A stretch of 62,741 bases of DNA, filler included. It is 14 parts of 14 records of this genome, joined end to end, with 100 filler letters (N's around TTAATTAATTAA, not from the genome) between each part and the next. Parts side by side here need not be neighbours in the genome. Positions count along the whole stretch, not along the records: positions 58,752 to 62,741 come from SRR15195285_15028; 13 more parts are not named here. One strand, 5' to 3'. Below the pieces are notes generated by a model, which made no database searches, was not told the DNA's origin, and saw only the letters and a list, made by a program, of their open reading frames with translations. The position numbers and the translations under genes are program-made. Within the stretch, counting starts at the first letter, position 1, and each line of letters starts with the position of its first letter. Below, one piece after another: positions 5,619 to 62,261 of the stretch.

Positions 5619-5718
5619 NNNNNNNNNNNNNNNNNNNNNNNNNNNNNNNNNNNNNNNNNNNNTTAATTAATTAANNNNNNNNNNNNNNNNNNNNNNNNNN
5701 NNNNNNNNNNNNNNNNNN
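5619..5718. other. Artificial contig spacer N44-TTAATTAATTAA-N44
   Basis: Identical 100-nt spacer repeated 13 times; the core has stop codons in all six frames. Confidence 0.99.
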
Positions 5719-10132: not shown

Positions 10133-10232
10133 NNNNNNNNNNNNNNNNNNNNNNNNNNNNNNNNNNNNNNNNNNNNTTAATTAATTAANNNNNNNNNNNN
10201 NNNNNNNNNNNNNNNNNNNNNNNNNNNNNNNN
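10133..10232. other. Artificial contig spacer
   Basis: N44-TTAATTAATTAA-N44. Confidence 0.99.
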
Positions 10233-13400: not shown

Positions 13401-14131
13401 CAGCGAGATGCGCAAGCATGTAGCGTGGCTGGCTTAAGCTGGAAGATCCGCTTGCCCCCTTTGTCAGAGCAGTAGCTATTTGCTGTCTCCGTGTAGCCTT
13501 GAGGTGCAGGGAGCGCTGTTGCGAGTTGCTTTGTCGAAGATACCCACGCCTGGCCATTACTGTCACTGCTGGATGCGCAGCGCCGGCCGTCCACGTATAG
13601 AGTCGTAGCGCCTCGTCCGAAGTTGATTGCTATGTGATGCCACTCCCCTGGAGGCAAATAGGCACACTGCGTTGGATAGGGTTTCCACTCGCCGCCACTC
13701 TCACTTGCTTCTGTCTCGATGAATTGGCGGTAGAGTTCCACCGCGAACGAATGTCCCTTGACGATGGTGGCGTCCCCCCAGAAGTAGTTTACCCACATAG
13801 ATATGCTCATCTCTTTCAGACCGTCCGTCGTACTGCGTGCCAGAAAAAACCCCACCGAGCCGTTTCCGAACATTCGGAGTGCTGTTGCATTGCTGCCAGG
13901 CACCTGCAGTGGCCTCAGCTGCGCGACGGTGGGGTCAAACCTGCCCACGCCTGCACCCACGCGCGGTTGTACTGCGCCCTGTGGCGTGGCATCGTCGAAA
14001 GTCCACCAGCCAACGAGCGACGCCTCCCGCTGATCATGATCGGCAAGGGCAGTCACGACGATCATCAGTGTCGCTCGAGCGCAGAACCCCAGTACCGTCG
14101 CTCCACCCTCGGTGGCGGTGCAACGTGTCAT
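10496..14131 (-). CDS. Secreted GH67 alpha-glucuronidase-like enzyme with N-terminal LamG/ConA domain and inserted PAN/Apple-like module (5 exons, ~1052 aa)
   Basis: GH67 motifs RMLNHW, RLIASVGINAL, PDFGGYLLKIGSE, RGFIYG, LDFETIEPINPL, NLYGYGRLAWN, YRLSNGKTL. Introns 11799-11902, 11392-11535, 11070-11167 and 10729-10859 (all GT-AG) restore the frame (3159 nt). LamG motifs LVGWWTFD, SISMWV, GEWHHIAI, LYVDG, GEIRIF. Confidence 0.85.
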
Positions 14132-14774
14132 GTCGTCGCGCCGTCTCCGCATCCATCCCCCGCGGCGCGCGCCGGCGGCGCGGGCTCCGTGCGCGTTCCG
14201 TACTAGTATCCGTGCGCGCGTCGTCCGTCCGCGACCAAGTGCATTATTCGCATTCAGTGTGCATGACAATTGACATGCATCGATGCATGAGCCATGAGGC
14301 CGAGCGGGCGGGGTTGTTCTCGCTCGTCGCGATTCGATTCGATTCGTCTCGTACAGTTGCACAGGACTCAATCTCGTAATTACCAGGAATTCCCACATAC
14401 AGCTGTTGAATGAGTCGAGGCATTTTCAATTGTTTCAAATCAATACACTCCGGCGCCATTCCGCTGTACACTTCGTATACCAGTAATTCACTACCTTGTG
14501 TTGCATCACTCGTGACGAATGCACCTGTTGAGCAACACCTGTTGAGCAGGACATTATGCGAAATGGAAATACGACTTTATTGATCAGCAGAACTGAGGAA
14601 TCCGATTCAGAAATGACGAGTCGATCCTGCATTCACAGGCTGGCTCAGAATTCAACCCTCCGCAGAGTGAAAACAACACCACTTTCAGTAGTAATGCGCA
14701 AGAAAAAGCATCGACTCCAGGCGGTCAGAAGGGTGCACTGCGTTCCTCAGTGCGTTTTCCGTACTCCCAACGAA

Positions 14775-14874: not shown

Positions 14875-14975
14875 CTTGTCGCTTGAAGTAGGTGTAATAC
14901 GGTACGTACGCGCGCGTGCGTGCGCCCCAGCGCCGGGGCACCAAATTGGAGCTCGTGGGGGGCCACGAGCGAACG

Positions 14976-17337
14976 ATGAGGATGGCGCTGCTGCTTGTCG
15001 GCGCGGTGGCCGCAGCGGCTGATCGCCCGCAGACTGCGGCAGGCTCGAAGCCACACATCCTCAGCATCCTCCAAGATGGTACGTGCATGCGCTCGATTAC
15101 TGTACTGTATAATGCCACCCACCAGCAGGAGGCTGTCGAACTGCGTTGCTTCTCGGAATGCTTTCTGCACAACACACGCTCCGAAGCCTCATATCCAGGT
15201 GCATGCTCGGGCCCAGATCTCGGCTACTACGACACGGGCATACACAATCCCAGCGCAACCGCTTGGACAGCCAACATTACCGCGCTCGCGAAGGAAGGGA
15301 TCGTCCTAACCAACCACTACACACACTGGCACTGTAGTCCGACGCGCAGATCTTTCCTCACAGGCCGGCTGCCGATACACCACGGCGAGCAGCTGTCTGG
15401 AGACACCACGGATGATATCGACCTACGCATGGACTGGGTCTCGGACAAGCTGCACGCCGCTGGATACCAATCCCACTGGTTTGGCAAGAAGCACACTGGT
15501 TTCAAAAGCATGCACCATCTCGGCGTCGAGCACGGCTTCACCAGCACCGTTGGCTCTTTCCAGACTGGCGGGCCGTATTCAGGCCCCAGGCACTCGATGC
15601 GGTGGCAGGACGACCACCCCATTTGGCAAGACTCTCAGTTTGAAAACATGCCTGGCGCTGACGCCAACCGTGACGGTCTTCTGTGTAACCAAACAGGTGG
15701 AGGGCCGGATGGCGAAGATCCAGCTTACGTCTCTGCAATCGCGTCATGTCCCACCAACGCAACTATCCTCATTGGCATGGACTTGCAGTGTGGTTCAGCG
15801 ATGAAGAAGGAGACAGCGCTCTCAGCAACCGCGTGCTGTGCCAGCTGTAGTGCCACACCTGGCTGCACGCACTGGGTTTTTCATCCGTGGGAGGATGAAA
15901 CTAGTTGTCACATCAAGACCGGCAAAACTTGCAGTGGGACGGCCACACCAGGCTCGACCGCAGGTATCCTGGCAAATCCGTCGCCTGGTCCCGGTCCTGG
16001 TCCAGCTCAGGGACCTGCAGCGTGCACAAACGAGTATTCGACCGATCTGTGGGGGCGTTTAGGGCTGCAAGCAGTTCAGCAGCACCCTCTACCAACGCCT
16101 CTCTACGTGCACCTTTGCTTCGAGGCCGTGCATACACCATATGACAAAGCACCTGGCGATCCCACAGATACTGTCTACAAGGGACTGGTCTGGCGTGCAG
16201 ATGTTTATATCGGAGAGATTGTTGCAACCCTAAAAGCTCGAGCGATGTGGGATACAACGGTGGTAGTCTACAGCGCCGATAACGGCGGCGTTGGGTCGGG
16301 CATAAACTGGCCACTACGTGGCGAGGTAAGATAGTGCGCTCGCTGCGTGATGCGCTGCTTACATGCTGTTGAATCGCACTCTCATGCACATGCCTGCTCG
16401 GCATGAGGGGTGCAGAAACACAGCAACTGGGAGGGTGGTCTGCGGACGGCGGCTTTTGTGAGTGGTGGGCTGATTCCAGCGGCGCTGCGTGGGACGACGA
16501 ATGCTGTTACCATTCACGTTGTCGACTGGTAAACACTAATCGACCTATGATCATCGTACACTAGTCAGACTGTTGCTAACAATGGCGTGGACTTTGGTGT
16601 TGACGTTGGTCTGTGTTTGTCGATTTAGGTACGCGACGTTTGCCGTTCTTGCTGGGCAGACAGCCAACGACGACCCACCAGTTATGCCAATCAAGGGTGA
16701 GCACGACAATCCATTCAAGAACGTGTATGGCGATGAGAGCTTCCCACCGCTTGATGGCGTGGATGTATGGCCAATGCTCATGGAACCCCAAAATCATGCC
16801 ATCGACTCGGCACATTCTCATCTGGTTCTTTCTAAGGAGGTTCTAATTGCAGCAAACTACAAGCTGATTGTCGCTCAGCCGTCTTTCAAAACGCAGAACA
16901 ATGGCTGGAAGAATCAGAACGGTTCCTGGTCAGCGGAGAACGACGGCTACCCTGTGGAAGACTGCACGTTCCAGACATTACCGCCAGCGAGTTCATTTTT
17001 CCCCGTGCCACACAATGCTTCAATGCAGCCCTGTCTATTCGACATCCGCAAAGATCCCAGCGAGCGCCACAACCTCGCTGCACAACTTCCTGCCATCGTC
17101 ATGGAGCTTTGGGCTGTACTGAACTCTACAATTCTCACGCAACGTGACTGCTCTGGCTGGAGTTACAAGGGGACGCCAGGCAGCATCCCAGGGCCGTTTA
17201 ACCCAACGGAGAATCAAACGGGGTGCTCGCCACCAGCCAAGCTTGGAGTGTGTGACGCAAGCTGCGCGAAAGCGCATTGGCAGAGCGGATTCGGCAACAG
17301 CGACGGCCCGATATGTGATGTGCCTGGCTGCAGCTAG
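14976..17337 (+). CDS. Secreted arylsulfatase (S1 formylglycine-dependent, ARSB-like) with inserted PAN/Apple-like module (4 exons, ~677 aa)
   Basis: Signal peptide; KPHILSILQDDLG after removing intron 15079-15216; CSPTRRSFLTGR signature; GKKH; AVHTP; SADNGG..NWPLRGEKHSNWEGG (intron 16326-16415); HVVDWYAT (intron 16529-16628); LFDIRKDPSERHNLA. Confidence 0.92.
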
Positions 17338-20230: not shown

Positions 20231-22704
20231 TTAGACAAGCGCCGAAAGCGTCACGGACGGCGTGCCTGCTTGAGACTGAGGGGAGTTGCTATCTGTCTTT
20301 CGCCGGGTGCCCTCACCCTCTTTCGATGCTTTAGCGGTGCGCGTCCGCGCTGCCCGGGGGCTCTTCGCCTTCACCTCCACACGTGTACCTGCTCCCTCGC
20401 TCATGCTCACCGCCTTCCAGTGCCAATAGTAGCTGGCAGGCAGACCCTCCAGCCGCAGCGCAAGCTTGCCCAGCGAGCGGTTTTTTGGCTCAATCAGCTC
20501 GTACACGAACTGCACGAGATGAGTAGCGGTCGGCGGCGATGTTGTGTACTCGATCGACCACTGCGTAGAGCTGTTCTGGTAGGCCGCGACGACCTGCATC
20601 GTATAGGTCTTCGCGAAGGGTCCATCCTCATTGTAGAACTTTTTTGCTGCCTTAATGGCAGCTTCGCGATCGAGAATGGGAACTCGTGGTGTAGTGCTCG
20701 CTTCTGAAGCTTCCGGCTGGCAGCCAATTGCGCCGCTTGCAGGTTGCTGCCACGTCGATGCAGGTTTTCCTGCCGTTTCCATCAGGATCGACTCCGGTAT
20801 GCCTTGCGCACGCCCTGATGTGGAGCTCAGCGCTGCCTCTGCCGAATTCGCGGTTCCTTTCACACGCGACGGCGACGACAGCCGCGCAGCTATTGCTGCA
20901 GCTGCTGCATCTTCGGCGGAACATCCAAGACCTGCACCATTTGCGCTGGAAGTTTTCGATGCCCTTTTAGCCAGTACTGAAGCGTCTCGCTGCTCCTGCT
21001 GACGCTTTTTCTCTTCTTGGGCTTCCAGCTGTTGCAGCCTCGCCAAGTTGGCCGAAGCTGCCCTCTCCTTGTATGCAGCGTCGGCTTTCGCCCGTGCCGC
21101 CGCATATTTTGCCGTGGCAGCCTGCAGCGACGGGCTCATTCCGCGGCCAGCACGGACGGTCAGAGTTCCATCGTCCTCCAGCAGCCGCACCGGCGCCCCT
21201 TGAGGTGGTCCGACATTCCGGGGAGCGCTTCCGACAGGCTGCAGCCGAGATGTCGACTTGCCTCTGTTGTTTGGGACAATGATGTGGAAAACAGTCCGCG
21301 AGTCCACTTGCTTGCCGCCACGTTGGCTGACATCGATATTCGCCCACGTCCCGCCACCGCCGCCGACGGTATCAAAGCTCACCTTGGTATACTCATGGTA
21401 CTTGATCGAAATGTAATTGCTACCAGCAGAAAAGCCACCCACAGCAGGAGGTGCCATTACCTTGACAAATCCCACTTTTCGCACCACGCCGAAACGCCCG
21501 TCCGGAGTCTTGTGCAGGTGCACGCCCTTGCGTCCAACAGTGACCTCCCATGTATCCAACTGCTCCTGTGGGACTAGAGCCTGCTGCGGCCCCACAGCGA
21601 GCCGCAAGGCTGCATCGTGCAATCCTGGATCATGCTCAGCATAGATAGTCCCGTACGCTCTGTCAACAGTCGCCTCGACAGGCTCTGCCTGGGAAGCCCT
21701 GAGCGTTTTGGGTCTTTCACCGGCGCCCTTGAACTCCGTATGCGTCAACATATCCCACGCAAGCTGCCAGGTCAATGTCGTTGTATGCCGCTGTGGAAGC
21801 TTTGCCCAGACGTCGGCCGTTGTGTCGCTGAGTATAATGCCGTCCGGCAGCACTTCTTTTCTTTCCCGTGAGCGGCCTTTTCCTTTCGCGGTCTTTGGCG
21901 AACTGGATTCACTGCCGGACGCGGCCGTGCCGCTGCCCGCCCTGGAAGCCTTCTTTGTGCTACGCTGGGATTCCTTTTGAGATTTGCGCTTTCGTGATGG
22001 CTGCGAGGCACCGTTCGTCGGGAAGCTGCCGACAGCGCTCGCCGGCCCGCCCATGCCGAGTGCGCTGAGCTCGCGTCCCCCGCCAACTGGGATGGTCGGA
22101 AAGTGGCCGGGTACGTTGGGTTGCGCGGTCGCCTCCCCGCTTGCCACCGTGGCCAAACTCTGCGCGGCAGACATGAGCAATGACGCGCTGCCTCCTTCCA
22201 CATTCTGTGCTGGCGGTCCGCAGAGGTCATTGTTGCCCAATTGCTCTTGGATCTCAGTCTTGATGGACGGCCCTGGAAATTGCATAGGTGCGAGCTGCCC
22301 CATGTGCGGCTGTGTGGTCCAGATGAACTTTCTGCAGTTTGCGCATCGCAGCAGCTCGCAGTACTCCTGTGGAATGTTGCGTCGCCCGCAGCTCGGACAC
22401 GTCACATTTTCGCCTGCGTGAACGATTGGAAGCGTGAGCCACACAAAATGGGTCGTCCAGGCTCACGGCGCAAGAATGCAGACGCTGCCTACAGCAGGGG
22501 ACAAGGCGGGACAGGAGACATCCTACCAGGATACATGGGCTCGGGCCCAGGTTCATCGATCACGCGACGGAGGTTGTTTCTCATATGCGTACTTGTTGTG
22601 CCACCCTGTCCCGCAGAGTTGTGTTCGACCATTCCACCCGGCCCCACCGCCGAACCGGCATATCTTCTCGCATCAGTCTGCGCAAGCTCGTTCACGATGT
22701 CCAT
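20231..22704 (-). CDS. Uncharacterised nuclear protein: CxxC/CxxC zinc ribbon, basic NLS-like patch, putative CG-1/NAC-like domain, coiled coil (2 exons, ~786 aa)
   Basis: ATG at 22704 (MDIVNE); intron 22414-22526 joins to GENVTCPSC..LRCANC; RKRKSQK; domain at ~21273-21775 aligns by eye with the protein at 24565-27826; the 3' end may have a further exon. Confidence 0.65.
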
Positions 22705-24564: not shown

Positions 24565-27500
24565 TTAGGACGTCACGCCTGCACAAAGAAGAAGTTCTTC
24601 GACGGACCAGCCGTCACCGAGCAGCGCTGCCAGTGCGTCCGAGTGCTGCGCCTCCGGGCTCAAACGGGCCAGGACACTGCCCATCCGGGCAGAGACTTCT
24701 GCCGCTGACTCAACGCTGCCGCTTCTGTCTATCAAATGCTCCTTCATGTCACGCAGTGCAAGAAGTTCCAGCAGCCAGTATGCATACTGGGGGAGACGAC
24801 GAGACAGACACGCTCACCTGTGAGACGCATGCAGCATTGCAACCCGGAATCAGTTGCACGCGCACCTGGTTGGCAGAGTTGGTGGCTGACTCAAAGGACG
24901 CAGCCGCCTCCTGTCTGCGGTCGGCTCCAAGACGACAGAGCAGTCGACCGCGAATCGAGTGAGCGCGCATGTGCACCGATGGTCTCATATCACCGCGGAG
25001 GTAGTCCCTGCAATACACCAGCTCGAATGAGTTTTCTAGTCAGCTGCACTGAGATGTACATGTTGTGCGGTATTCATATACTGTGTTGTCTTCGGGCGTG
25101 CTGTGAACAGCTGTGTGTCAATGTTACCTGGATAGCGCGACATCTACAAACTCTAGTGCTCTCGTGTACTGCTGGCATTTTTCGCACACCTCAGCGATTG
25201 TGAGAGCTGCGACACATGGCAGCAGGATACGATGTGAGGATTTACATACGGATAAAGGTGCAAACTGACGTACACAATCAACTCAGTTAGCGAGCACATA
25301 CCGGGGCAGGCGTAGTTCAGCTGCCCAGATTGATGCCGGTGCCCAGTGTCGCCCCAATCAAGTAATTGCTGCGGTGTTGGCACTGTGGGCATGACCTTTT
25401 CTGGAGAAATCTCAGGCCAAGAGCACAAAGCGTATGACATCTGCAACACGTGGGCATACACCTCACATTGGAACAGAGCAAACGACGAGCTGAAAAGCTG
25501 CCAAACTTACACGAATCATCACAGAATAGTAACCAACGTCGTTTACATGGCGCCCAGTCGAGGCGCCTCGCTTACGGAAGACCTTGTGACCAACATTTTC
25601 AGCGAGCCGATCTACTGTTTCGTCCGTCGTATCCCATCCCATCTTGAGATTCCGCAACAGTTGCGTGGCGTCAGCATCACGGCCGACAATGTGAAGCATT
25701 GTCGGCCACATGTAACCAGCATGCAGCAGTGTCAAAGATTCAGATCGGTCATTGTCTATACGCGCGATGTTCGTGCGCAGCATCGCCAACTGCATATCGA
25801 TACATCGATTAGCAGTATCCAGCTCGACCCAAACGAGGGCGAGCGGAGCGAACACTGGGTAAGCAGCATAGACGCTCTCGGTATATGAAGAGCCTGATGC
25901 TGTCAGCGCACGGGTAGTCGGGGCTTCAGCATGTGCAGTCTCGATTGCTTGCGTGATAAGCTCGCCTTGCTCTCCGAACAGACCCCAGGTAAACTCTGGG
26001 CTAAGCACAAGAATGTCCTTGAACGCTGTGCCAGTCCAGACTGCGGACCGCAAATGCTTCAGTTTCACAGCCTCGTCGTCGATGTTCTCAGAGCGGGCAA
26101 CAGAGAAGTAGACTTGTATCATGCGCATTAGTCCAGCATTTGCCCGTGGGATGTCCCCCGCATCCATAAGTGCGGGCATGACATCGAGAGTCAATATTAG
26201 ACCTGCGATAGTCCCGGCGCTCTCCGGCTGTTGGCCCTGTTCAGTTTGTGACAGGTGATCAAGGCGTGGGCGGTAGCGGTGTATGTCTGCAGGATCGTCC
26301 ATAGACAGGAGCACTGCCTGGACGCAGTACAGCTCGACGAAGTCATAAATCTTTTGTACCTCTGGTGGAGCGTTGCGGCTCATCTTGTCGAACGCCGTCA
26401 GGCACTTACGCCAAACTGCGGTGGCCGCAGAACGTCCCTGCGCATTCTTAGCACTTTCACCAATGCACCACCATTGAAGCGCTGTCTTCCACCACATGTC
26501 GTCGCTGGTCGACGTCTCTTCGTATGCAGACGTAATAATCGAAGCACCCTCAACGCCCAGCATCATTGTCGACGCCTTCAACAGAGCGTCTAGTGGTGCA
26601 ATCACGCTTGCAACAGTGGCTTGTGCGTCCGGCGAGTGCTGTCCTATCGCATCCAATAGCTCACCGGCCGATTCTAGCCTGCCGTACCCTTCGCCACGAT
26701 CCTTGTCCTGTGGCAACGGTGCATTGCGCTTCCCGATTTGCTGCACATGCAATGCTCGCCGCTGCTCCTCGTCGTAAACATCGTCAGTAAGTAGCCCGCA
26801 TTCATACAGCTCTTTCAGGCGCTGCAGTTCCTTTTCGCGCCATTCCCAAACCTCATCACTGGCAATCGGATAGTCCCCAGTTACCGACGTGCTCGTGTCT
26901 GCTGCAGGTTCTGCTTCCACCGACTCACGCGCCTCTGCTGTTTCCCAGTGCCTCTTGCCAGGGGCAGCACGGCTAGTCTCTGAGAAGACCTGAAACAACA
27001 CACAGCTCTTGTCCTCTGTGTTGGTCGAATCGTCTCCATCCCCTTTGCGTATCAGCGTGAACTCAAAAAACTTGAGTAGTTGCATTCCTTGTCGGACGAT
27101 CCGACCGTAGCGCTTTCGCACACCGAGGGCGTTGCGCCCAGCGCCTGCCGACGGAAAATAGTCGTGTGCTCCGGACACCCCGCCGCTGTTTGCCCATCGA
27201 TCAATTCGGGCAGCAGTGCCGCCCCATAAGCTCGTAGTCCGTTTTAGCTTCGGCGCCTCCATGAAGAGCAGGTACGGGTCTACCTCCTCGGAGATATGTG
27301 CGGGCCGCTCCTGTAGGCTCCCATCGTGGCTTTGCAGCAAGTGCATACACGCCTGCAGCGTAATATCAGATGATGCTGCTTGGTCCTGGTGTGGGCTTGT
27401 CGCTGGCGGCTTCCTTTCTTTCTTCACACGAGCCATATGCGAGCTGCTCCGCTGCTCTGCCACTGCCGCTGCCGCATCGCGCTCCGCTGCGACTCGTTTT

Positions 27501-27826
27501 GCAGACGGCGTCACGTTCCGTCGGCTCCTCTTGGCCGGGCATGGCCGCTCTCTCGGCTGTATCCGCGCCACACGTCGGTTGTATGCAGTACCGAAGGGGT
27601 CAGACACGCTGTCGACGCGCATCGCTCCAGTGGGACTGTCCAGGGTCAGCTTATCGTCGTCATGTTCGCCCGCAGGACCCGCTGCGGCCAGCGCGTGCGA
27701 GGTATCGATCGTATCCCACTGCAGACTTTTCAAGCTGTCCAGGTCGCTGAATGACGGGTTCCTGCTCAGGCTGCCAAGGCCCGCAAGCCCCTGCAAGTCT
27801 TGCTCCGACGGGTTGCGGGCGAACAT
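24565..27826 (-). CDS. Uncharacterised protein: putative CG-1/NAC-like domain, SHOCT-like motif, long helical/TPR-like C-terminus (at least 5 exons, at least 965 aa)
   Basis: Long ORF plus introns 25441-25510, 25207-25301, 25008-25127 and 24787-24865 give a continuous frame to the stop at 24565 (2898 nt from ATG 27826). ELQRLKELYECGLLTDDVYDEE is SHOCT-like. An acceptor-like CAG at 27836 suggests an additional upstream exon. Confidence 0.7.
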
Positions 27827-28395
27827 CCCGATTTCCTGCATCCACACCACACAAGTGGTCAAGCCGCACCCAGCTCCACCAACTGTTGCGCCAGACGCCC
27901 CCGCCTCCTCCCCCACCACCCTCCACCCACGACCACCACACCTATCCTCAGGCTCTCCACCGTTCTCTTTCACGCCCTACCCTGGCCTCTATTCTGCGCG
28001 CCCGGACCACTTCTGTGCCTGCCTCAACCTGCCGTGCTCAGACGAACGAGGGCAATCCGTCGACAGGCCCGCAGCGAGGGCGCAGGCTGCAGGATCCAGG
28101 CTCCAGGCCGACAGCCATGCAGCGAGCACCGCAACCCAGACTGCTGGCCAGCCCCCCTCCCTGCTGGCGGCCCGGATGCTTCGAAGCATTCCCCTGATCA
28201 GGACCTGATTCAGGTGAAACAGGAGGTGTATGTGTGTACACTGTATCACTGTATGTGCCCAGGTTGAAACTGAAGTGCCGGGACGAATTGACAATCGAAC
28301 GTGGTGCGCGCCGCGCCGCGCGCGCGCGCGCGGCGGCGCGAGCGCGCGCGTGACTTTTTCGCCGCGCGAGCCTGCGATGGTCGTGCACAGGGGCT

Positions 28396-28496: not shown

Positions 28497-31400
28497 GGCA
28501 TCGAATTTGAACACCCAGAGAGCGACGACGAGGGCGACACCGAAAATATCGCGCCACTGACAATTCGCTCCATCTTTTCTGACGGTTTGGCAGCAAAAAA
28601 GGCGCCGCCGCTGATGCCAGGGTGTGTACTTCTAGGCGTTAATGCCGATGAGCTCCTGGGGCTGGCCGCTGCGGACTCGTTGCAAGTCCTACGGGAGGCC
28701 ACCCAGCAAAGACGCTCGCGCGCAAAGCCTCTGGTGCTGCGCTTTGGGCCTCCTGCAGGTGCTACACACGTACCGCCTGCGGATACTAGGCTCGCGAAGG
28801 TTGCGCAGGAAGCAGACTTGAATAGAAGAAAGCGAGATGAGTGGGTGAAAGAGGCCCAGCAGCAGCGTGAGGCAGACGAAGCGGAGTACCGGAAAAAACA
28901 TTCTGTGCACCGCCAGCACCACCCACCTCCTGACCATATTGCCGAGGTCACGGAGCGGCTTGCCGTGGAGGGCGTTGAGCGCGAGAACAGAATTGCGGCG
29001 CTGCGAGCAGAAGTGGTAAAGGGAGAGGAAAATACGTGCCAGTCTACACCGACGATCCTCGAACATTCTAGGAAACTCGCAAGCTCTCATGCAGACTTTC
29101 TCACGAGGATCTCAGACTGGACTGCAGAGAAGCAGCGACGTGAGGAGGAGTATGAGCAGTTTCGGGCCATACAGGCGGAAGCTGTACCACTGACGATTCA
29201 TGAGATGGTTCAAGTGGACGTCACTGATTTCTGGCAGCGCCAGCAGGAGAAACAAGACGAAGCAGCACAGAGACTGGAGGCCAGGAAGGCTGAGGAGGGG
29301 AAGCGTTCTGTAGCTGAGGTGAAAGCTGCCCCCGCAATAGATAAACGAAGTTCACAACTCGCGGCCGAGACTCGTGGAGCACAGCCCGGTGCCTCGAACC
29401 ACGCAGAGCACTTGCTGGCATGGGGCAAGCAAGCGAGCGAGCGGAAAGCACGCAAGCGCCAGGAATTGGAGGCGAAGCTGCAGCCTCCGCCGTCGCCTGC
29501 CATCAATCCCAACGCCAAACGTCTAGCCGCAAAGTGGGAAAAGAATCAAGCTGAGAGACGGCAACGAAAGAAGTTGCTGACGGAGGCCCAAGCCAACGCC
29601 GAAACCACTTTCAAGCCAGCCGTCAATACGCGTCCAAAAGACTGGCGTCCATCATCGGCGCCATCCGGTGGACGACATTCTCGGTGCGAAAGCCCCAGCT
29701 ACCTCACTAGTTAGCTTCCACTTCATGTGTGTCAATAGCATATCGTTCGCAGATTGTCTGCTACTATGTATGTTTTGTGTGGTTGACTGTCGTACGCAAC
29801 CTCGGCCGGTCAGGTTGAATGTGAGCGCAGAGCTAGAGCGCAGTGAGGCGCAAATTCGAGCACAGCTGAAGGCCGACATGAGCATGTCAAGTCAACGGCC
29901 TGTCTCCCCAACACCAAATCGTCTAGGTTCAGCCACACTGCCATCTCCGGCAGATCCATCGCTTCTCATCCGCCCACCGTCTGCCAATCGCCATGCCAGA
30001 GGTGCGGTAGACCAGGCGGGTGCTGTGGCCTCGAAGTCTTCCAATATTCGGGGAGCACGGCGCGCGGTCGGGCGAGTCGTCGGGGCGAAGAGCTCTCAGC
30101 CCAATGGTGGCAAGCGGAGAAAATCCGACAGGAAAAGTGGACAAGAGCATTTGCAACAGCAGACCGTTGCGACTGCACGGGCTGATACTCGGCGACACCC
30201 ACAATGGCATGACGGTCATCATGCGGCAGACCGCAGCACGATGGGACTGACGGATCCAGGAAATGGGTGGGCTGCGTCTGCGGTCTCGCTCGCAGTGTCG
30301 CAGTCACTGGAGCGCGCAAATGCGGCCAGGTCAGCACAAAGGTCTGTGCAGCAACAGGAGCCGCACCGTCATGCGCAGTTGCACGACGCCCGACATTTCA
30401 GCCAAGTGACCCCAGCAGGAGCTGGGCACCCCCTGACGAGTACACAAACGCTCAGCGGTCAAGTAGCGAGGCCAGGATTGGCCAGCAACGACCGTTCTGT
30501 TGGTAGCAGGAGCAACAACAAAATCCAAAATCAAGATGTTAGCAGCCCGAGAAGCCTCTTTGGCAAAAATAGACGTGGTGCAATTGGCTCAACCCAGCGA
30601 CCTTCAACAGACCGCAGAGGTCGACGGCAGTTGCGCAGCCCGGTCAGCCTCTCCAAGTCTAGTGCTGTCGCGACGCAACCGCAGAACTCAATCACAGTAG
30701 CACCTGCTGGCTCTGAAGAGGGCGAGGTGCCCCGCCAACTGTTTTCATCGCCAACGCGTCCCGCTGTTCTCACGGCAACGGATGACGACAGTCGCGGGCG
30801 ACAGCACGATGAGCAACACGATGGTGTGATCCATGACGGCGGGATGTATGTCGTTCCAGCACACCCTGGCAACATCGGCAAATACGACCACCTTGCAGGG
30901 ACCAACCCGTTTGACGCAGATGGGGCTGACGTGCCGAGCGAGGCTGACCAGCAGCACGCTGAACAGCACCGTGACGCAATCAATCCAGCTTCTTCATTAT
31001 CATCGGGTGATCACACCGATAATGATGGAAGCGGACCGGCCCAAACCTCGTCCTGGGCAGGATCAGGTATTGCAGAAGAAGAGCTATCGATGTCGCCTGT
31101 AGATCCGTCAAACTGGAACAGCAGCGCACAGATGTCACCAAATCGGCCGCTCACGCCTGGTAGGCGACCGGTTACGCCGGGTCGTGTATCCTTCGGACGA
31201 ACACGCCAGGTCTACATGTATAGAGAAAGCCCGAAGGAGCGCGCCCAGAAACTTGCAGCAGCTGCTCCAGCACTGGCCAAGGCGGATCAAATCCGAGCGG
31301 AGAACGAACGGTTGGAGGAGGAAGACGCGCGGCGAGTCTCGTCTACGACTACGAGCGGTGGTGCCGTCAACCATGCTGCGCAGGTCGATGGGGCGACCGA

Positions 31401-31779
31401 CCCTGGTTCGGCCACGAGTGCTGCATTGCTGAGTGCGCTTGTTGCAGCGAAGTCAGAGATGCTCTCGGCTCTGGATCCTAGCCCAGCACGAGATGGCAAT
31501 GACGATGCCCATGAACATGATGATATGGACGATTACGAATCACCAGGTAGTACTGGGCAGTCAGATGTGCTGACACAACACGACACAATGGCCTTTTTCA
31601 GCGGTGGTCCCTCGGCGTCGATATCTCGATCGGATCCTAATAATGACCAAGATTACCCACGAGATATCAGCGACAACTCGGAAGATGACCACAGTGAAGG
31701 TGAGGAAGAGGACGCTGAGAGTGGGACCAGAGTGGCGCTGCGTGCACAAATTGACCGAATGATGGGAGTGGTGCGCTGA
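28497..31779 (+). CDS. 5'-partial protein: PDZ-like domain, coiled coil with PxI(N/D)xxSxxLA repeats, long disordered tail
   Basis: Frame is open from the contig edge (GIEF..LTIRSI..GLAAK..LMPGCVLLGVN..PLVLRF, PDZ-like). Repeats PTILEHSRKLA, PAIDKRSSQLA, PAINPNAKRLA, FKPAVN. Intron 29684-29813 joins the two ORFs in frame. Confidence 0.7.
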
Positions 31780-48249: not shown

Positions 48250-50317
48250 TCATCTGCTTCCATCGCTACTCTCGTCATCGCTAGAAACAATGGTGCCGGT
48301 TGTCCTGGTTCTGAGCCACGGCTGGTCTAGCGAGCGATCCAATAGATCAGCAATAGACACATCTCCTTTGGGTATAGGGCTACCAGACCTGCCGTCGCTG
48401 CGCGTTTGCGGCGTGGCCACAGGTGATAGCGATAGCTCTTGCCGGCGAGTTCTCTGGGCTGAGCAGTACCACGCACCGAACCACCTACGGACCATATTTA
48501 GCTGCAAACGTAGCAGCGATATTATCACTTTTTTTTCACCCCTGTGACGGTCACGCACACGGTGTGCTGCAATAGTATGCCAGCGCGAAAGAGTGCGTCC
48601 CTGGATCGCGGTACGGCCATTTGGGTTTCGCCAGCCCCGCGATGACGCTTTGCAGAGGAGATTTTGGGACCGGCTCGCCCATGCCTGTAGTACTGCCGAA
48701 AGCAGTATCGAGCGCTGTCCAGCACCTCCAATGTAGACCTTCGCAGCAAGGCTCAACTGTTCCAAGCGGCGCACACAACCCATAAGAACCGGCCACGTCG
48801 AGGCAACTATCAATGCTGGAATGGGTGAGCTGTACGTTCGTGTATCACCTTAATAGATAAGGCCAGTTTCGGCATGGAGGCGTGGGTGTGGGAAGCTTGG
48901 ATATAGTACGTACAGCAAGGGAACGGCCAGCAACCAATTGTCGCTGGCTCACAAGAGCTGCCTGACAGGCACCTTCCTGGTCGGCATACAGCGCTGCACG
49001 TTCCTGCTCCAGTCGCGTCAACTGCTGCTCGGAGGACTGCGCTGCTGCGACGGCAGCTGCTGCAGAAGCCTGAGCTTTTCGGAGGTCCGCAGCAACAGAG
49101 GAAGCATGCGCCTGCTGGAGACGATCTGACTCTGCAAAACGTGATTCCGAAGCCGCACACCGAGCTTCAGCAGCTGCTCGGGATCCTGAGACTAACACCA
49201 GGCGCCAGGCAAGCAATGCGCTGTGTAGCACTCTCTTTGAGCGCTGGGTTCGACCATCACGCCTCGCAGATATTAAGCATTTCTCGAGTTTCTGAGAGTG
49301 GGCTGTAGCACGTGAGCCCAGTGCAACTGCAGTGGCAGCAGCTGCGACAGCCTCGTCGCGCTCTCGTTCGGCGACTGAAAGAGCCATTCGCAACTTTACT
49401 AGCTCACTCTGCACTTCTTCATGTTGGCTGTCCGCAATGTCTCCATCCAAGTGTCGATCTAGTTCAGGATTGACACTCGATTGATCATCTGTTTCATCCT
49501 CTGTGGTTTCATTGTCCTCCAAGCTTTCGCTTTCCGCAGCGACGCCACCAGTGGTATCGCTATAGGTGCTTGTGCTGTCGTCTTGCCAGACAAGCTGAAT
49601 CAGATCACGCAGACTTACAAGGCCGCTGCTGGTGGTGTCTACAGCACGGAAGATGCGGAGTATCGTAGCGTCGCTGATCTGATCAGGTCCTAGTCTCCCC
49701 CCTGTTCTCACCAACTTTCGGAACTCGTCGTGAGATAACGCGCCGCGGTTTGTGTGGTCGTATTGCCGCAACAGGTTCTGCGGCCGCTGCCCAGGCTTGT
49801 CGTCAGATGGTACGCCTCCGTAAGAGGCGGCCTTCAAGCGGTGGCGAAGCAGCCGCAGCTCATCAATGTCCACGAGGCGCACCCTCCTAGTAATACCACG
49901 AAGCCTGGCATCAGCGCCGTGTTCTCGCGCCGTTGTTTGCCCAGCGTGCGAATGGATCGACACATCGGCTGACCATTTGGTGGCATTTGGTGGCTTTCCA
50001 TAGTGCACGGTTGGAGCCTGGGCCACTCCTGTCTCGCCGCGGGCAGTGACAAACACGAGCTCTACGTCGCGAGTAAAGTGCCCTTGATGATAATGCGGCT
50101 GTCTCGGAGGCAGCGCGACGTCCCTGACTGGGCTAATCTGCCGGGCGGGGCTTACGCATCGGTGGCGAACAGCGAGCCTCGACCTCGACTGGGATACCTC
50201 TGACACACCGTACCCTTGAGACGCACCCAATACATCAGTCTCCGCAAGCACCGAGCGCGACGGTCTACTCAACTGCGCCGCGATTCGTCGCCGCTCCTCG
50301 ATCCCTCTGCGCCGCAT
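48250..50317 (-). CDS. EF-hand pair plus coiled-coil protein with Sfi1-like Trp repeats (centrosomal/flagellar-like)
   Basis: YDHTNRGALSHDEF and VDTTSSGLVSLRDL EF loops; heptad-rich region; LLAWR, LQAWA, LSRWH, RRWFGAW; predicted intron 48757-48913 (acceptor uncertain); start uncertain. Confidence 0.6.
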
Positions 50318-50667
50318 AGTGTCCTCAGGTCCTCCGGTCCTCCGGTCTCTTGGGTCAGAGAAGCGATCGACCGTTGACGCTAGCACACTGAGGCCACCAT
50401 CATACCGTGCTGCCGGTCGGTGGCCTTCGTGCTCCAGAGGAGCACGCGTTAGCGCAGCTCTGTCGTCGCCTGGCTCCCATCGGTCCCTCTACTCGCCCAT
50501 GCCCATGGCGGGATGAGCGTGCGGTCCCGGCAACCCCCAGCTGGAGCTCCTGGTATCCAGGTATCGCGAGACCAGATCACGCGTTCTCGGAGTTCAAAGA
50601 ACTCACTGATAAATGCAGCGGACTTCGCGGACAGCCCCGAGACACTGGTTTTCTTCGCACACTCTAG

Positions 50668-55351: not shown

Positions 55352-57990
55352 ATGGAGACGAGCTGCAAGGAGAAGCTCGCGAGGGGCGTCTGCGTGAGCC
55401 ATGCGGCAGCCGAGGCCGCCCCGCAGAAGGCGACGATCAGCGTGAGTTGCGGGTAGGATAGTCTCCGGCGTGGTTGTTGATGGGTTTGCAGGGAATTGGA
55501 AACGTGGCGGCGATCAATGCAATTGTTGTTGATGGGCTGACAGCGTGCGATGATGGGTTGCGGTTGCTGTGCGCGGGCATGCAGGTGTGCTCGTCATGCG
55601 CGGGGAGCCAGGTGAGAGCGCGCGATGATTCGTCCCCCCCCGCGGGTCGCCCTCTGTTTTGCACCCGCCTCACGCTCGCCACGGGAGAGGGAGACGACTG
55701 CGGGGGCGAGAGCGTGACGCTACTGCGCGCGCGCCGTACGCTTGCGTACACTGACGCACCTTGGCGCCTATTGGTGTGCGCAGGCCACACTGGCAGACCT
55801 CGAGGACCTCTGCTCGTCGGTCGGTTTGAAGGCAACCGCCAGCGGCTGCATGGGCGCGTGCGGATCCGGGTCCGTCGCTGTCGCGCGCGCTATCAGCACA
55901 GCCACCACGAACACCGCACCAGGTGTATTGTTGTACCTGGATCTTCCCCGCGCTGCCCTCTCAGAAGGCTACCCTCTCTGAAGGCTACCCTCTGACGGCT
56001 GATCGCACAGTCTTGCGCAGCAGTCTAACATTGTGTGGCGTTTCGGGACAGGCCTAACGTCATGGTGACCACCCCACCGGCACCGGTTGAGGAGGGCCAG
56101 GCTCCGAACCGAGGCACGTACAAATTGCTCACGGGCGTCTACTCGCTTGACAAATCTCTCACCGTACTCGAACAGGCGCTCGGGCAACCACCAGAGATCC
56201 CCGACGAAATCATGACGCGCACGCGTCTGCGGAGTGACGCTATGCGTCTGATGAATTCTACCCGCCTTGAAGAGATGGAGAAGGCCGAGGAGCTCTTCAC
56301 GATGGTGCGAATCACAGCCCGGCCCCGATGTCGCTCAACGCGCCCCGCTTAGCCGAGTGACAATCTCACCGCCGTACCGCCTGTGGTGCCTCTCACACAT
56401 GCCCAGGCCATCGAAAAGGAAATCGACGACCCGGGCACATTCAACCCTAATCTGTCCCCGGACGATGCGGTCGCTCAGCAGATCGAGCGCCTGCGCGAGC
56501 TTCGGATGCTGCGTGGCAATACCCGTGGATCGCAGCTCCTGTCAGACTTCGATGGCGCGATTGCAGATTTTAATGACATTATTGAAGAGGAACCGGAGTT
56601 CACGCGTGCATACATGGAAAAGGCGAAGATTCTCCGGCGTGCTCGAAAACCACAGGAGGCGCTCGACTGCTTCAAGAAGACGATGGAGCTAGGCACTACT
56701 CTTGAGCCTCCGCCGAAGGGATTCGGAATGCACAAGTATATGATCACTTGGCTCGAGCGCATAATCGATGAGCTCGAGGAGCGTCTCCTGGAGGAGGAGG
56801 CGATCGGAAGCGGCGAGTTTGGTGCCGGATCTTTTGACGAGGATGCGACCGACTCAGGCGACGGCAGTGGACGCTGGAAGGTCGAGAAGATCACTGGCTA
56901 CTCTGCCGACTCGTGCGTGTACCACCTGGTGAACAACCCACCCGCAACGCCGCACCCGTATCCCAACGATGCGTGGCATGTCAATATCCGTTTCGGCGGG
57001 ACGGTCCGCGAGTACACGCCCATCTCAGATGCGTTTGACTGGGAGCAAGGGAAACTTGACATCCTGGTCAAGACGTACACTGACGGTCAGGTCTCAAAGA
57101 AGTTCGCGATGCTACGCCAGGCATCACCTTACACCTCGGCAGAAGAGCAGCCGTGCTGGGTACTCACCTCCGCTCCAGCGCTGACACTAGCACTCCCTGG
57201 GCTGACGGAAATGAGTCCTGAAATGGTAGCGATGATGAATCCGGATGCAGAGCCGGCCGCCCCATGCTCTCACCTGGCGATGGTTGTCGGCGGGACTGGT
57301 ATCGCTCCAGCGCTGCAGATCTTGCGCGAGGTCGCCAACCCAGAGGGTGCGTTCGGCCCGTCATGTGAAGGCACGCTGCTGTACTCTAGCCACACTCCAG
57401 AGGATGTGCTATGCGTGGATGAGCTACGCGAGGTCGAGGAGCGCTCAGAAGGCCGCATCAGCGTGCGGCACACACTAACCGATTTTGAGATCGAAGGCAA
57501 GGAAGCAGCCGCTGGTGGGACCGACTATTGGCTGCCCGGCAGGCATTATCATTTCACGTCACAATGGAACCCGTATAAACCAGCATCGGGCGAGTTGTTG
57601 CTAGGCGAAGATGATGAGGCAGGACTCCGTGGACGACCTGACCAAGCCATGCTTGCGGCCGAGCTGCCGGCCCCCGGCGATGGCGTCCGTGTTGCGGTGT
57701 GTGGCCCACCAGCGATGTGGGACGATATGAAGGCCGCGTGCTTGGCGCTTGGCCACAAAGAGGAAAATCTAATAGAGCTGAAGGCTCTAAGTGACGAGCA
57801 AATGCGCGAACAAGGCCTCCTGCCGGAGGAAGTGGACAACGACAGTCTCAGCGGTGCAGTTGTGGGCACGGAAGCTGAATCTCGTGCGAGTCCAGGCATG
57901 CTGGCGAAGGCCATGGATATCGTACACGACTGGGGTGCAGAATTCGCTGCAGCGTTTGGAGCTGTCAAGGACCCATCTGCGAAGCTCTGA
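55352..57990 (+). CDS. Fusion protein: thioredoxin-like [2Fe-2S] ferredoxin + TPR + NADH-cytochrome b5 reductase-like domain, C-terminal PTS1 (5 exons, ~679 aa)
   Basis: Exons 55352-55441, 55585-55611, 55784-55869, 56052-56304, 56407-57990 (2040 nt). ISVCSSC..GCMGACGSGPNVMV; TPR DFDGAIADFNDIIEEEPEFTRAYMEKA..EALDCFKK; reductase VREYTPIS, LVKTYTDGQVS, GGTGIAP, VCGPPAM; ends SAKL. Confidence 0.8.
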
Positions 57991-58651: not shown

Positions 58652-58751
58652 NNNNNNNNNNNNNNNNNNNNNNNNNNNNNNNNNNNNNNNNNNNNTTAAT
58701 TAATTAANNNNNNNNNNNNNNNNNNNNNNNNNNNNNNNNNNNNNNNNNNNN
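58652..58751. other. Artificial contig spacer
   Basis: N44-TTAATTAATTAA-N44. Confidence 0.99.
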
Positions 58752-59602
58752 CATCATCCGGCAGGCATCGTCCGTGCGCCCACCATGGCGTGGTCGGCCA
58801 GGTCGTCGGTATGTACCTGCCACGCAAACGCTCGTCCCACACGGCGTGCACCAGCCAGGTGCACGTGTCGCCAGCAACAGTGCGCCACCTCGCACCCGGC
58901 CTCCCGAGCGTAACCTGGCTGCTCCGGGGGTTTGCAGCAGCCACACGCGCAGCCAGCCGTGGACACGCATGCAGGAGGGGGGGCGCCAGCTGCAAGGGAC
59001 GGCAACCTATCGCGTGGCTCATTGCCGGTAGTACACGTACAGTAGGATCCTCTACTAGCTATGAATAGTAGTTAGTGTACAGTACACGTCGTGTCACGTG
59101 GGAGCGGGAACACGTCTGGTTCCAATTTGGGCGGACGCCACTCAATTTCTTTGCGGATGCGTAAAAAAAGTACGCCCGACATCCGTTCTCGCGAACTCCC
59201 CTCACAACACTCCCCCATTCAGCCAATAGAACGCTGACCCACATCCAGTACCATTCTCACACTGCATATTTGGCAAACCACGCGAATTCCAGTCGGTGGT
59301 TTCCCACGGTCGGGAGCGGTAAAACAAAAGTACGTTCGAAAATTTCCGCGTACACTCGGTACAGTTTCGTACTCAACTCAAATCATTTCTGAATTGAAAT
59401 ATAACATCAATGAATTTATTGTAGCCATTAGTACGGGTTTGTAAGGGTCCGTCAACACATTTCTCCGCGTACGGCGGATGAGCCATCGGAGCGGCGGGGC
59501 GGATCGGCGGCGGCTCCCTGCTCTGTTTCGTGTTTGGTCTCTGCGTTCCTGCCGTTGGTTGGGTTTGAAGCGCGGGTTGGACGCTACGGCTGGGGTGCGA
59601 GG

Positions 59603-61359
59603 ATGCCTGGACCGGAGAGCAGCGCGAAGAAGGCCGCGACGGTGGAGCGCCAGGCGGCGGCGGGGCGTGCGGATGCGCTCAAGGAGAAGAACAAGCGCAA
59701 GAAGATGAAGGCGAAGGCCTTCGCCAATGCCGCCAAGTACGAGAAGGAGTACAAGGATAAGGAGGAGCAGGAGATGCGCCTGCGCCGCCAGGCGCGCACC
59801 CTCGGCAACTTCTACGTGCCGGAGACTGCGAGGCTGCTGGCCGTGATCCGCATCCGCGGTATCAACGACATGCACCCGAAGTCGCGCAAGATCCTGCAGC
59901 TGCTCCGCCTGCGCCAGATCAACAACATGGTCTTCGTCAAGCTGACCAAGGCCACCATGAACATGATCCGCAAGGTTGAGCCGTACGTTGCCTACGGCTA
60001 CCCGTCGCTCAAGACGGTCCGCGAGGTCCTCTACAAGCGCGGCCACGGCAAGGTCAACAAGCAGCGCATCCCGCTCACCGACAACAGCATCATCGAGGGC
60101 ACCCTCGGCAAGCACGGCATCGTGTGCATGGAGGATCTGGTGCACGAGATCTACACGGTCGGCCCCAAGTTCAAGGAGGCCTCGAACTTCCTCTGGCCGG
60201 TCAAGCTGTCGAACCTCACCGGCGGCATGACCGACAAGGGCACTCACTACGTCGAGGGCGGCGAGTCCGGCCTGCGCGAGAAGTACATCAACAGCATGAT
60301 CTCCCGCATGAACGTTGGCGGCGCCAAAAAGAAGAGCAAGCGCAAGGTTGTCCACCTCAGCGGCGACGACACAGAGGGTGGCAAGAAGAAGGCTGCGCAT
60401 ACCGTCACGGTCCAGAAGGCCGAAGCGCATGTGGTTGAGCACATGCCCTGCCCCGCCACTGGCCAAACTAGTGCGTGCCTCAGCAGCTAACGACTTGGCT
60501 ATCTATACCTCAGTGAGCGAAGGGACACTCACCGCCCTTGCATTTTGCTGTCTCCCTCTGCAGCGACCGGCCACCCGAAGGAGGTCTCAAAGGCTCCGGC
60601 GCCGAAACCCATGGGTACTACCCACGCTCCAGCTGCGGTGCACGCAGCGGGCATGTCCGCTGGCCCGAAGGTTACGACCGTGAAGCCAGTCGTCCAGCAC
60701 GGCGCCTCCGTCGCAACGGCCTCCGCCACGGCGGACACTGTCAAGGCCGCCCACGACGGTGAGATCGGTAAGCGTCTGCAGCAAGTTGGCGCAGTGGTCG
60801 GTGCCATCACGTGCTCTCTGGTCTGGGACAACACCGACGTAAGATGCCTGCCATTTCTCTGCCACCAGCCATCGAGCTGGAGCTTTGTTCCGAGCTGCAC
60901 TCGTGGTTATCGGTTGCGTAATTTGGCAGGATCTCGACCTGCACTGCACCGGCCCCACTGGCTCCCACATCTTCTGGAACGACAAGAAGGGCAAGTGCGG
61001 CGGACACCTCGACGTCGACATGAACGCATCTGACAAACACGTCACTGGCTGCCCGGTTGAGAACATCTTCTGGGAGCACCCGCCCAAGGGCAAGTACAGG
61101 CTGTGGGTTGAGAACAACACGGCCCGCAACGATGGAAGCACTCCGTTTCAGGTGCGCCTGACGAAGGACGGCAAGGCCCAGGACAAAAAGTTCGACGACA
61201 TCGAAGAGTACGAGGAAATTGACATCTTCGAATGTACGAGGCAGCCGTGCTCTTTCCCTGGCGCAAGAGCCAGTCTGTCTCTGTGTCTGTGTCTGTCTTT
61301 CAAATCGTTGACGACGCGACGCGTACGTTGCTGTCTGTGTCTTTGCAGTCACTGTCTAA
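59603..61359 (+). CDS. RPL7: 60S ribosomal protein L7 (uL30) fused to a C-terminal DUF2135/YfaP-like domain (4 exons, ~485 aa)
   Basis: [76 protein letters not shown] with strong C/G-ending codon bias. No stop after RMN (60313). Introns 60471-60563, 60839-60929 and 61234-61348 give 1458 nt in frame to TAA 61357-61359. Confidence 0.9.
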
Positions 61360-61793
61360 GTGCTCAGCAGGGACTCGACAGGCTCATCATCACGCGAATT
61401 CGCGCACGCAGTAACCCATTTCCACTGGAGGAGGCGGTGGTGGCATGCTGTGTCAGTAGCCATGAATGAAATGCTGCGGGTCAAATTTGACCATTTGCGT
61501 CCGTCGCTCGAGATTCGTGGCTACGCAACGCACTGAACACGGGAAAGTATGTGGTATGCTAAGAGCCAGATCGCAGACTCACCACGAAACGAAAATCACA
61601 ACGCATATATTTTCGCACAAGTCACTAAACCGACGTGCATGGTTTTACCCGTTCCCATATCGGCCACCATGCAGGAGGTGAAAGCGGTGCTGGCAGCTAT
61701 TGCAATGCAATTTGTGACTGTACGAAGTGACCTCCTCGAAACATGTTTTGGACGAGTACTGCACGGTCGTGTTTCTCGACCTCCTGACAGCAC

Positions 61794-62261
61794 TTACCGC
61801 TCCATGCGATCCACGCCGACGTGGAGTTGCTGCTCGATGGTGACAACCTGCATCTCCAGTTGCCGCAGTGCGCACCCCGGGCAGCTGTCGCCGACAACTA
61901 CATCCTCGAAACAGCCTCCCGTTAGCCGGTGCTGCTCGCGCAGCTTGATCCGTGCCCCCCTGATGAAGACGATCGGGCAGCAGCACCAGCACCAGAATGA
62001 CGACGTGTCCTGTCCACAGCAGCTGTCTGCCCCCCCTGTGCTCTGGAGGTAATTAGCTACTGTTGCGGCCGCCTCTGGGGCGCCACAGCAGCAGCAACAA
62101 CAGTTGTAGCCAAGTCCGATCCAAAAATCGTCGAATATGCCTTGACTCCATAGCGCCTTCCCGCCCGGTGGTGCGACCTCGCCCCGCCCCGCGATCAGCA
62201 CTGGCCCCACGAGTGGCGCCTGCGCGCTGCCGTCATCTCCGCTCGTATACGCGCGCGGCAT
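61794..62261 (-). CDS. PLAC8-family (CNR/PCR-like) Cys-rich protein
   Basis: WSQGIFD, CCCCCCG, WCWCCCP, RIKLREQHRLTGGCFED, CPGCALRQ; the apparent stop lies in a GTAAGT donor, so a further small 3' exon is likely. Confidence 0.85.
   Translation of the reverse strand: MPRAYTSGDDGSAQAPLVGPVLIAGRGEVAPPGGKALWSQGIFDDFWIGLGYNCCCCCCGAPEAAATVANYLQSTGGADSCCGQDTSSFWCWCCCPIVFIRGARIKLREQHRLTGGCFEDVVVGDSCPGCALRQLEMQVVTIEQQLHVGVDRMER

Follow-up and report, generated by a model that had tools for sequence, protein, structure and literature searches.

A spliced gene for ribosomal protein uL30 (L7) with a C-terminal YfaP/DUF2135-like module in an uncultured marine protist

Can a core ribosomal protein carry a foreign globular domain as a fixed part of its own gene, and what might such a protein do? 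To our knowledge, foreign globular domains hardly ever become attached to core ribosomal proteins, the textbook exceptions being ubiquitin-type fusions whose extra domain is removed by cleavage. The question is raised by a gene of an uncultured marine protist in a 62,741-nucleotide stretch of DNA, here called the window, which consists of 14 contigs (3.2-7.2 kb; GC 0.53-0.60) joined by spacers of the form N44-TTAATTAATTAA-N44; "genes" on either side of a spacer are therefore not genomic neighbours. The gene is on the fourteenth and final contig (58752-62741, 3990 bp, GC 0.60), where the coding region for ribosomal protein uL30, also called L7 or RPL7, continues in frame into a linker and a module resembling the E. 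coli protein YfaP and the DUF2135 family, a kind of domain found elsewhere chiefly in bacteria and archaea. The gene is genuine, transcribed and interrupted by three introns, and the full uL30 with its foreign domain is kept in several species, spliced and expressed, beside a normal copy.

The spliced product of 59603-61359 (+) has 485 amino acids (aa), ends in EFTV before a TAA stop at 61357-61359, and comprises a complete uL30/L7 (residues 1-237), a low-complexity linker of ~110 aa and a module of ~138 aa. An earlier note on this DNA had claimed that a complete L7 reaches its usual end, RMN at 60313, with no stop codon. This is borne out: the next codon is GTT, and the unspliced frame stays open until a TAA at 60488-60490. 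The frame is open 5' of the start too, but its first ATG is that at 59603. The Lys-rich and then Ala/Thr/His-rich linker described in the same note is also present in the spliced frame. The L7 part is colinear end to end with canonical relatives of 237 aa, and both of its Pfam domains score above their cut-offs in the exon-1 product (Ribosomal_L30_N, PF08079, E 1.4e-15, 57.8 bits, cut-off 31.6; Ribosomal_L30, PF00327, E 3.4e-19, 68.9 bits, cut-off 23), as they do in the related fusion sequences L001 and P0016.

Public sequencing runs confirm the splicing. Part of the stretch occurs in 19 of the 23 runs listed, six of these being RNA runs, and Logan contigs of three RNA runs (X9, X13 and the oligo-dT run X18) and one DNA run (X1) were mapped on 59300-61900 as evidence of presence, which says nothing on levels, ends or strand. 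The three introns predicted earlier are canonical (GT..AG) and all appear as joints in RNA contigs, 60470>60564 and 60838>60930 in X9, X13 and X18, and 61233>61349 in X9 and X13. Each joint is absent from the DNA run (0/1), whose record 7 (60284-61623) is unbroken through all three introns. The RMN junction is itself bridged in RNA by X9 record 26 (60272-60470 plus 60564-60832) and X18 record 19 (60102-60467), so that transcripts cross 60313 and splice as the earlier note had proposed. A second X18 joint, 60467>60564 with three other letters, is the same splice with Ile for Thr as in L001, and X18 therefore also contains a close relative that has this intron.

The same fusion is found in related protists (L001 and, at greater distance, P0016, P0288, P0289, P0124 and P0022), where the earlier note had suggested it might occur. 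The metagenome locus L001 (1627 nucleotides, nt), from a sister organism, has an uninterrupted 485-aa frame (39-1496) that ends in EFTV and a stop and is colinear at every residue with the spliced model of the window gene. Further cases come from a search with the exon-1 product, in which 5869 of 8000 scored candidates reached E<=1e-3; among the best 120, which were listed, the nearest that bear an organism name are only 45-66% identical. P0016 (466 aa, 79% identical) has L7, linker and the same module in one frame ending in FEFDL, and its cluster mates P0288 and P0289 carry the fusion on further contigs. P0022 is a fragment reading over the first spliced junction, and P0004 (277 aa, 94% identical) is the unspliced read-through form, which ends at the TAA of intron 1. 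P0124 (376 aa) starts with a C-terminal fragment of GAPDH (PF02800) and switches at a shared LTDN to the C-terminal half of L7, the linker and the module; its 5' end is evidently an assembly chimera, an illustration of how easily highly expressed GC-rich transcripts are mis-joined. Two dinoflagellate entries, P0007 (501 aa) and P0013 (452 aa), hold two tandem L7 units and are unrelated to these domain fusions. The linker is wholly different between sub-clades (window vs P0016) except for the stretch directly before the module. The Met at 60611, from which a module protein could start on its own, corresponds to Ala in L001.

Between the window and L001, the ratio of nonsynonymous to synonymous substitution rates (dN/dS) is 0.063 in the L7 core (synonymous rate dS 0.14; 188/192 aa identical), 0.21 in the linker (dS 0.38; 98/113 aa) and 0.115 in the module (dS 0.32; 127/135 aa). 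The linker and module are coding and under purifying selection, but without a codon bias as extreme as in the L7 part. The bias that the earlier note saw persisting across the junction does so only in weakened form, as the GC content at third codon positions (GC3) falls from 0.96 for the L7 core to 0.76 for the linker and 0.80 for the module, the latter two still above the intron GC of 0.54-0.56. On the opposite strand, a 374-aa stop-free frame overlies the L7 gene (59378-60502, -); most likely it results from the extreme sense-frame GC3 of 0.96 and does not represent a gene.

A normal uL30 gene exists alongside the fusion. At least ten relatives of 237 aa ending in RMN, 71-96% identical, are among the matches listed, and at loci L002, L003, L004 and L006 a stop follows RMN directly, with no module downstream. 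L002 and the window share 95.8% nucleotide identity over the 714-nt L7 coding part and have unrelated 5' and 3' untranslated regions (UTRs); at the protein level the window L7 is 97% identical to L002 over residues 1-237 and 96% to P0006 in an alignment that covers 80% of a 295-aa query. A DNA contig of run X1 matches 60127-60313 with one difference and then continues with TAG and sequence like the 3'UTR of L002, at a depth of 7.5 compared to 9.24 for the fusion-specific contig. The normal-length RPL7 that the earlier note thought worth seeking elsewhere is thus at hand (L002, P0006 and this X1 contig). The 3' ends of fusion and canonical loci are distinct and each is kept across species; the fusion and the L7 that stops at RMN are two separate loci in the same communities. 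Alternative splicing from the GT at 60314 to an exon containing TAG was also considered, and the 1.4 kb that follow contain no exon of this kind. A separate canonical locus is more likely than alternative splicing because the X1 DNA contig joins RMN directly to TAG. The earlier note had also pointed out that several conserved L7 positions deviate. These deviations recur in P0006, P0008 and P0014, canonical L7 proteins of 237 aa from this clade; they are lineage-wide rather than a mark of the fusion copy, and say nothing on neofunctionalisation.

What, then, is the module? At E<=1e-3 the exon-3 product (101 aa) has 2222 matches among representative proteins, of which 168 reach E<=1e-10 and 18 reach E<=1e-30, and these homologues often hold 2-6 module copies per protein. 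Pfam domains in 50 of them include Lectin_C (10), DUF2135 (9), Zn-ribbon (7), P_proprotein (7), PPC (5), TPR (4) and Dynamin_N (4). In a profile search for longer proteins, PF09906 occurs in 85 of the best 120 listed, among them proteins of ~575-600 aa source-labelled Poseidoniales/Euryarchaeota and "YfaP (DUF2135 family)". Aligned directly, the module profile matches E. coli YfaP 142-229 with a probability of 98.3% (hhalign, E 1.6e-14), and BLASTP gives 26% identity over 102 aa (E 4e-9). The nearest Atlas clusters are DUF2135-named (scores 0.95-0.97). Sequence-profile matches in the PDB are the subtilases SubHal (E 4.8e-5) and KP-43 (E 1.4e-4), in which the motifs come in the same order, and the C-terminal domains of KP-43 and Tk-SP give structural Z scores of 5.3-5.4 at 26-29% identity over 72-77 residues. 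Judged by these comparisons, the module is homologous to YfaP/DUF2135 in the wider sense and to the C-terminal domains of KP-43/Tk-SP-type subtilases, in line with the motifs and beta-sandwich that the earlier note had recognised.

The same note expected hmmscan to report Ribosomal_L30_N, Ribosomal_L30 and a DUF2135-like domain; the two L30 domains were found, whereas DUF2135 was not reported. For PF09906 (gathering score 22 bits) the window exon, P0016, full-length L001 and the L001 module all lack a row, even at E<=10. The model has 48 positions only, equal to YfaP 199-244 and downstream of the DLDLH and LD.D motifs, and Pfam DUF2135 is silent on the fusion protein because its model covers only this part. 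The proprotein convertase P-domain (PF01483) scores 15.2, 13.9 and 17.0 bits (E 0.023-0.0063), below its 21-bit cut-off, which points to a related superfamily rather than to membership.

The AlphaFold model of the module, from an alignment of 32 rows, is a nine-strand beta-sandwich with two short helices (helices at 2-5 and 8-16, a strand at 24-30), with a predicted local distance difference test score (pLDDT) of 97.1 and a predicted template modelling score of 0.90. Foldseek gave no PDB match to it at E<=1e-3. In a wide structural search with VIA-align TerD came out on top (2qz7, Z 8.4, root mean square deviation 3.5, 108 residues aligned; 2kxt, Z 7.6, 3.2, 107), with fold matches that are 16% identical and no Pfam row for TerD (PF02342) on the module. 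In the module alignment L61, D62, D64 and G88 are invariant, and D35, D37, E78 and N79 are present in at least 90% of the sequences. Subtilase C-terminal domains bind calcium, and calcium binding is named in the PDB titles of the TerD entry 2kxt and of entry 2lge. The conserved acidic positions and these relatives suggest that the module may bind Ca2+.

Within the same lineage, module copies are 56-83% identical and always follow a helix RLxxAGAxVG, and they occur on very different proteins: a PF01910 domain protein (P0125), membrane-anchored or Ala/Glu/Lys coiled-coil proteins (P0126, P0128), TPR proteins (P0127, P0140, P0159, P0285), and proteins with PH (P0147), SAP (P0152), ubiquitin-like (P0163) and dynamin-like Dynamin_N (P0165) domains. 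These partners represent intracellular eukaryotic contexts, unlike the secreted or surface contexts of prokaryotes. A module shared with such unrelated partners would fit a general adaptor to one common target.

We consider it most plausible, with a probability of roughly 40%, that the fusion acts as a minor paralog of uL30, entering the 60S subunit and displaying the module as a tethered adaptor. The product would most likely enter the 60S because its L7 part is complete and unchanged, assembling like canonical uL30. The module could then hang off the ribosome surface on the flexible linker, where it may bind or anchor, probably in a Ca2+-dependent manner, so that a sub-population of ribosomes would gain an address or a partner through it. 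In yeast, Rpl7a-GFP serves as a 60S reporter that is normally cytoplasmic and becomes nuclear when biogenesis is blocked (PMC6558755). The uL30 protein therefore tolerates an added globular domain; the name of the reporter suggests that the tag is C-terminal.

Several observations weigh against this reading. RNA contig depth is ~7-16 over the fusion-specific part compared to up to 419 over the L7 core, which fits a minor product, though contig depth mixes organisms and we draw no expression ranking from it. GC3 drops from 0.96 to 0.76-0.80 past the junction. Fusion and canonical L7 probably reside in the same genome, but this is inferred from the shared sample X1. The relatives that point to calcium are distant ones, and the Z of 8.4 for TerD is at a level that the tool calls common. 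The full-length model is weak (mean pLDDT 57.2; linker without secondary structure, pLDDT 27-40), and its poor quality, including the L7 part, means that we make no statement on inter-domain contacts. Finally, assembler collapse of similar paralogs could partly explain the near-identity of the L7 parts, which weakens the argument from an unchanged L7.

The last point bears on how far the contigs themselves can be trusted. That L7 was mis-assembled with an unrelated downstream gene, or that the frame past RMN is non-functional read-through, is hardly believable even though metagenome contigs are short and P0124 is plainly chimeric at its 5' end. The RMN junction recurs in at least eight assemblies, and since its sequence differs between sub-clades, repeated mis-assembly is not credible; RNA contigs cross it, the frame is kept through three introns, and the selection on linker and module described above points the same way. 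Only a little short of even odds is a more limited fault, in which the first ~140-500 nt of the fusion on the window contig (promoter, 5'UTR and "type a" N-terminus) would be those of the canonical paralog, joined on by the assembler or through gene conversion. The first 45 residues match L001 at 20/45 positions and resemble the canonical L002 and P0006, which link this N-terminus to a stop after RMN; P0004 and L001 both link the other N-terminus type to the fusion end, and P0004, from the same organism type, has EEQEM..ARTLGNF and SRMN in common with the window. RNA contigs of X9 and X18 depart from the window 5' of 59714 into that other type. The fusion rows do not form a single clade in a tree of the L7 part (31 rows, 8 fusion and 23 canonical, chosen from the listed hits, with other listed hits omitted): the window L7 stands with canonical L002 and P0006 (100/99) but L001 with P0004 (95/85), and fusion P0022 stands with canonical P0015 (99/96). 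The pairing of fusion P0289 with canonical P0019 (99/97) follows the same pattern. L001 and L002 are 100% identical over a core of ~420 nt (coding-sequence nt ~240-660) and differ in the first ~120 nt and after RMN, which indicates either that the paralogs have undergone gene conversion or that assemblers routed both transcripts through the more abundant core. Against a chimeric 5' end, the window contig is continuous, X1 DNA contigs tile the window-type 5' end (59361-59881), and canonical P0014 and P0008 carry the other N-terminus, so that N-terminus type is not a clean marker. A chimera of this kind would change the N-terminus and promoter of the fusion, not remove the fusion.

If the join is accepted, the protein might still act elsewhere than in the ribosome. 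The L7 moiety could serve the module as an RNA-binding, nucleolar-targeting or oligomerisation unit and never be part of translating ribosomes, much as Rlp7-type paralogs have left the mature ribosome. The coexisting canonical L7 leaves the fusion copy free to change role, and the lower GC3 and low contig depth of the fusion-specific part, together with the Lys-rich stretches after RMN, would suit such a course. However, known extraribosomal L7 paralogs are diverged, whereas the L7 core here is neither relaxed (dN/dS 0.063) nor divergent and clusters tightly with canonical copies, and we regard this route as unlikely. Still less probable is that a precursor is cut in the linker to yield normal uL30 and free module in equal amounts. 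Cleaved ribosomal-protein fusion genes are an established kind, and a long exposed linker could hold a protease site, but no recognisable protease or ubiquitin-like element was found in the fusion, the linker is conserved between sub-clades only just before the module, and the presence of the same module at the end of many unrelated proteins suggests a function while attached.

Should the tethered uL30 paralog indeed enter ribosomes, it would provide a natural experiment in specialised or localised ribosomes. A bolder version, which we hold to be possible yet doubtful, is an "addressed" ribosome, in which some of the 60S subunits carry a tethered, Ca2+-responsive YfaP-type module supplied by the second uL30 gene and are recruited to wherever the PH, dynamin, TPR and membrane coiled-coil proteins with the module go. 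If true, this would be genetically encoded ribosome heterogeneity with a built-in localisation domain. For DUF2135, the PH, dynamin and TPR partners add a eukaryotic intracellular context, which narrows its likely role to binding or targeting.

The features of the gene are collected in Table 1. The 62.7-kb window contains no second L7, no second module copy and no canonical 3'UTR, and no Rfam match. Its other contigs hold long frames, in which Pfam detects generic domains only. Those at 826-4281 (+), 11849-14425 (-), 14898-16331 (+), 48848-50488 (-) and 56353-57987 (+) have ankyrin repeats, a GH67-like plus Laminin_G_3 region, sulfatase with PAN, a pair of EF-hands and an oxidoreductase of the FAD/NAD-binding type; the frames at 7769-9415, 20234-22462, 25466-27976 and 29581-31776 have no Pfam match at E<=1e-5.

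Table 1. Coordinates of the uL30 fusion gene and of the spacers, counted along the whole window.
Feature	Position	Strand	Basis or remark
Spacers, first and last examples	5619-5718, 10133-10232 ... 58652-58751		
5'UTR, minimum extent	59560..59602	+	RNA contig X13 record 9 matches 59560-59771, 0 differences
Complete uL30/L7 coding part, residues 1-237, RMN end without stop	59603..60313	+	Pfam and canonical relatives
N-terminal ~45 codons, "type a", perhaps taken over from canonical paralog by chimeric assembly or gene conversion	59603..59740	+	
Linker part 1, Lys-rich, end of exon 1	60314..60470	+	joined to L7 in RNA contigs X9, X18
Intron 1, 93 nt, GT..AG	60471..60563	+	in-frame TAA if retained; RNA joints
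Linker part 2, Ala/Thr/His/Pro-rich, exon 2	60564..60736	+	
Module start, helix and first strand, end of exon 2	60737..60838	+	tblastn, L001 module residues 1-34, 97% identical
Intron 2, 91 nt, GT..AG	60839..60929	+	RNA joints
Beta-sandwich body (DLDLH ... LDVDMN ... VENIFW ... GKYRLWVEN), exon 3	60930..61233	+	
Intron 3, 115 nt, GT..AG	61234..61348	+	RNA joints; spliced EFTV-stop end equals L001 frame end
Exon 4, last residues and TAA stop	61349..61359	+	
3'UTR, minimum extent	61360..61543	+	RNA contig X9 record 28 to 61543; resembles L001 3' end

Set against known systems, the fusion shares with canonical uL30 (RPL7) the full uL30, both Pfam domains and the same lineage-specific motifs, and differs from it by 248 extra residues, three introns, its own conserved 3'UTR and a lower GC3. 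In a literature search whose reach did not extend to supplements, no natural uL30 fusion was found, and the search returned no paper mentioning DUF2135 and, among the papers listed, no functional study of YfaP. With the YfaP/DUF2135 family, which includes the Poseidoniales archaea proteins (~575-600 aa) and Zn-ribbon/C-type-lectin proteins of Clostridiales, the module shares a beta-sandwich with the motifs LxW..DLDLH..P.G..LD.D..G.Y..V. The prokaryotic members have signal peptides or membrane anchors and repeats, whereas the uL30 fusion has a single C-terminal copy on a cytosolic ribosomal protein, with a conserved helix RLxxAGAxxG ahead of it.

The subtilases KP-43 (1wmd), SubHal (5fax) and Tk-SP (3afg, 9ues) follow the same motif order, LKISLVW .. 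NDLDLVITAPNG .. VENVF .. P.SGTYTVEV. Their domain is packed on the protease domain, while the uL30 module is isolated on a linker and has an extra GG.LDVDMN loop. TerD (2qz7, 2kxt), the best fold match, is a lead for metal binding and not for family membership.

The closest precedents among ribosomal proteins are the ubiquitin-type fusions Ub-eL40, Ub-eS31 and FUBI-eS30, from which the extra domain is cleaved off. The likeness lies in a conserved in-frame join of a core ribosomal protein and a non-ribosomal globular domain. In the ubiquitin type the cleaved domain is N-terminal and directly abutting, whereas in the uL30 fusion a domain of another fold is C-terminal behind a ~110-aa linker and an unfused canonical paralog coexists. 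Ubiquitin-ribosomal protein fusions are also reported for algae (PMC6332867). The uL30 fusion differs from these known ribosomal-protein fusions in its domain, its position, its linker and its coexisting canonical copy.

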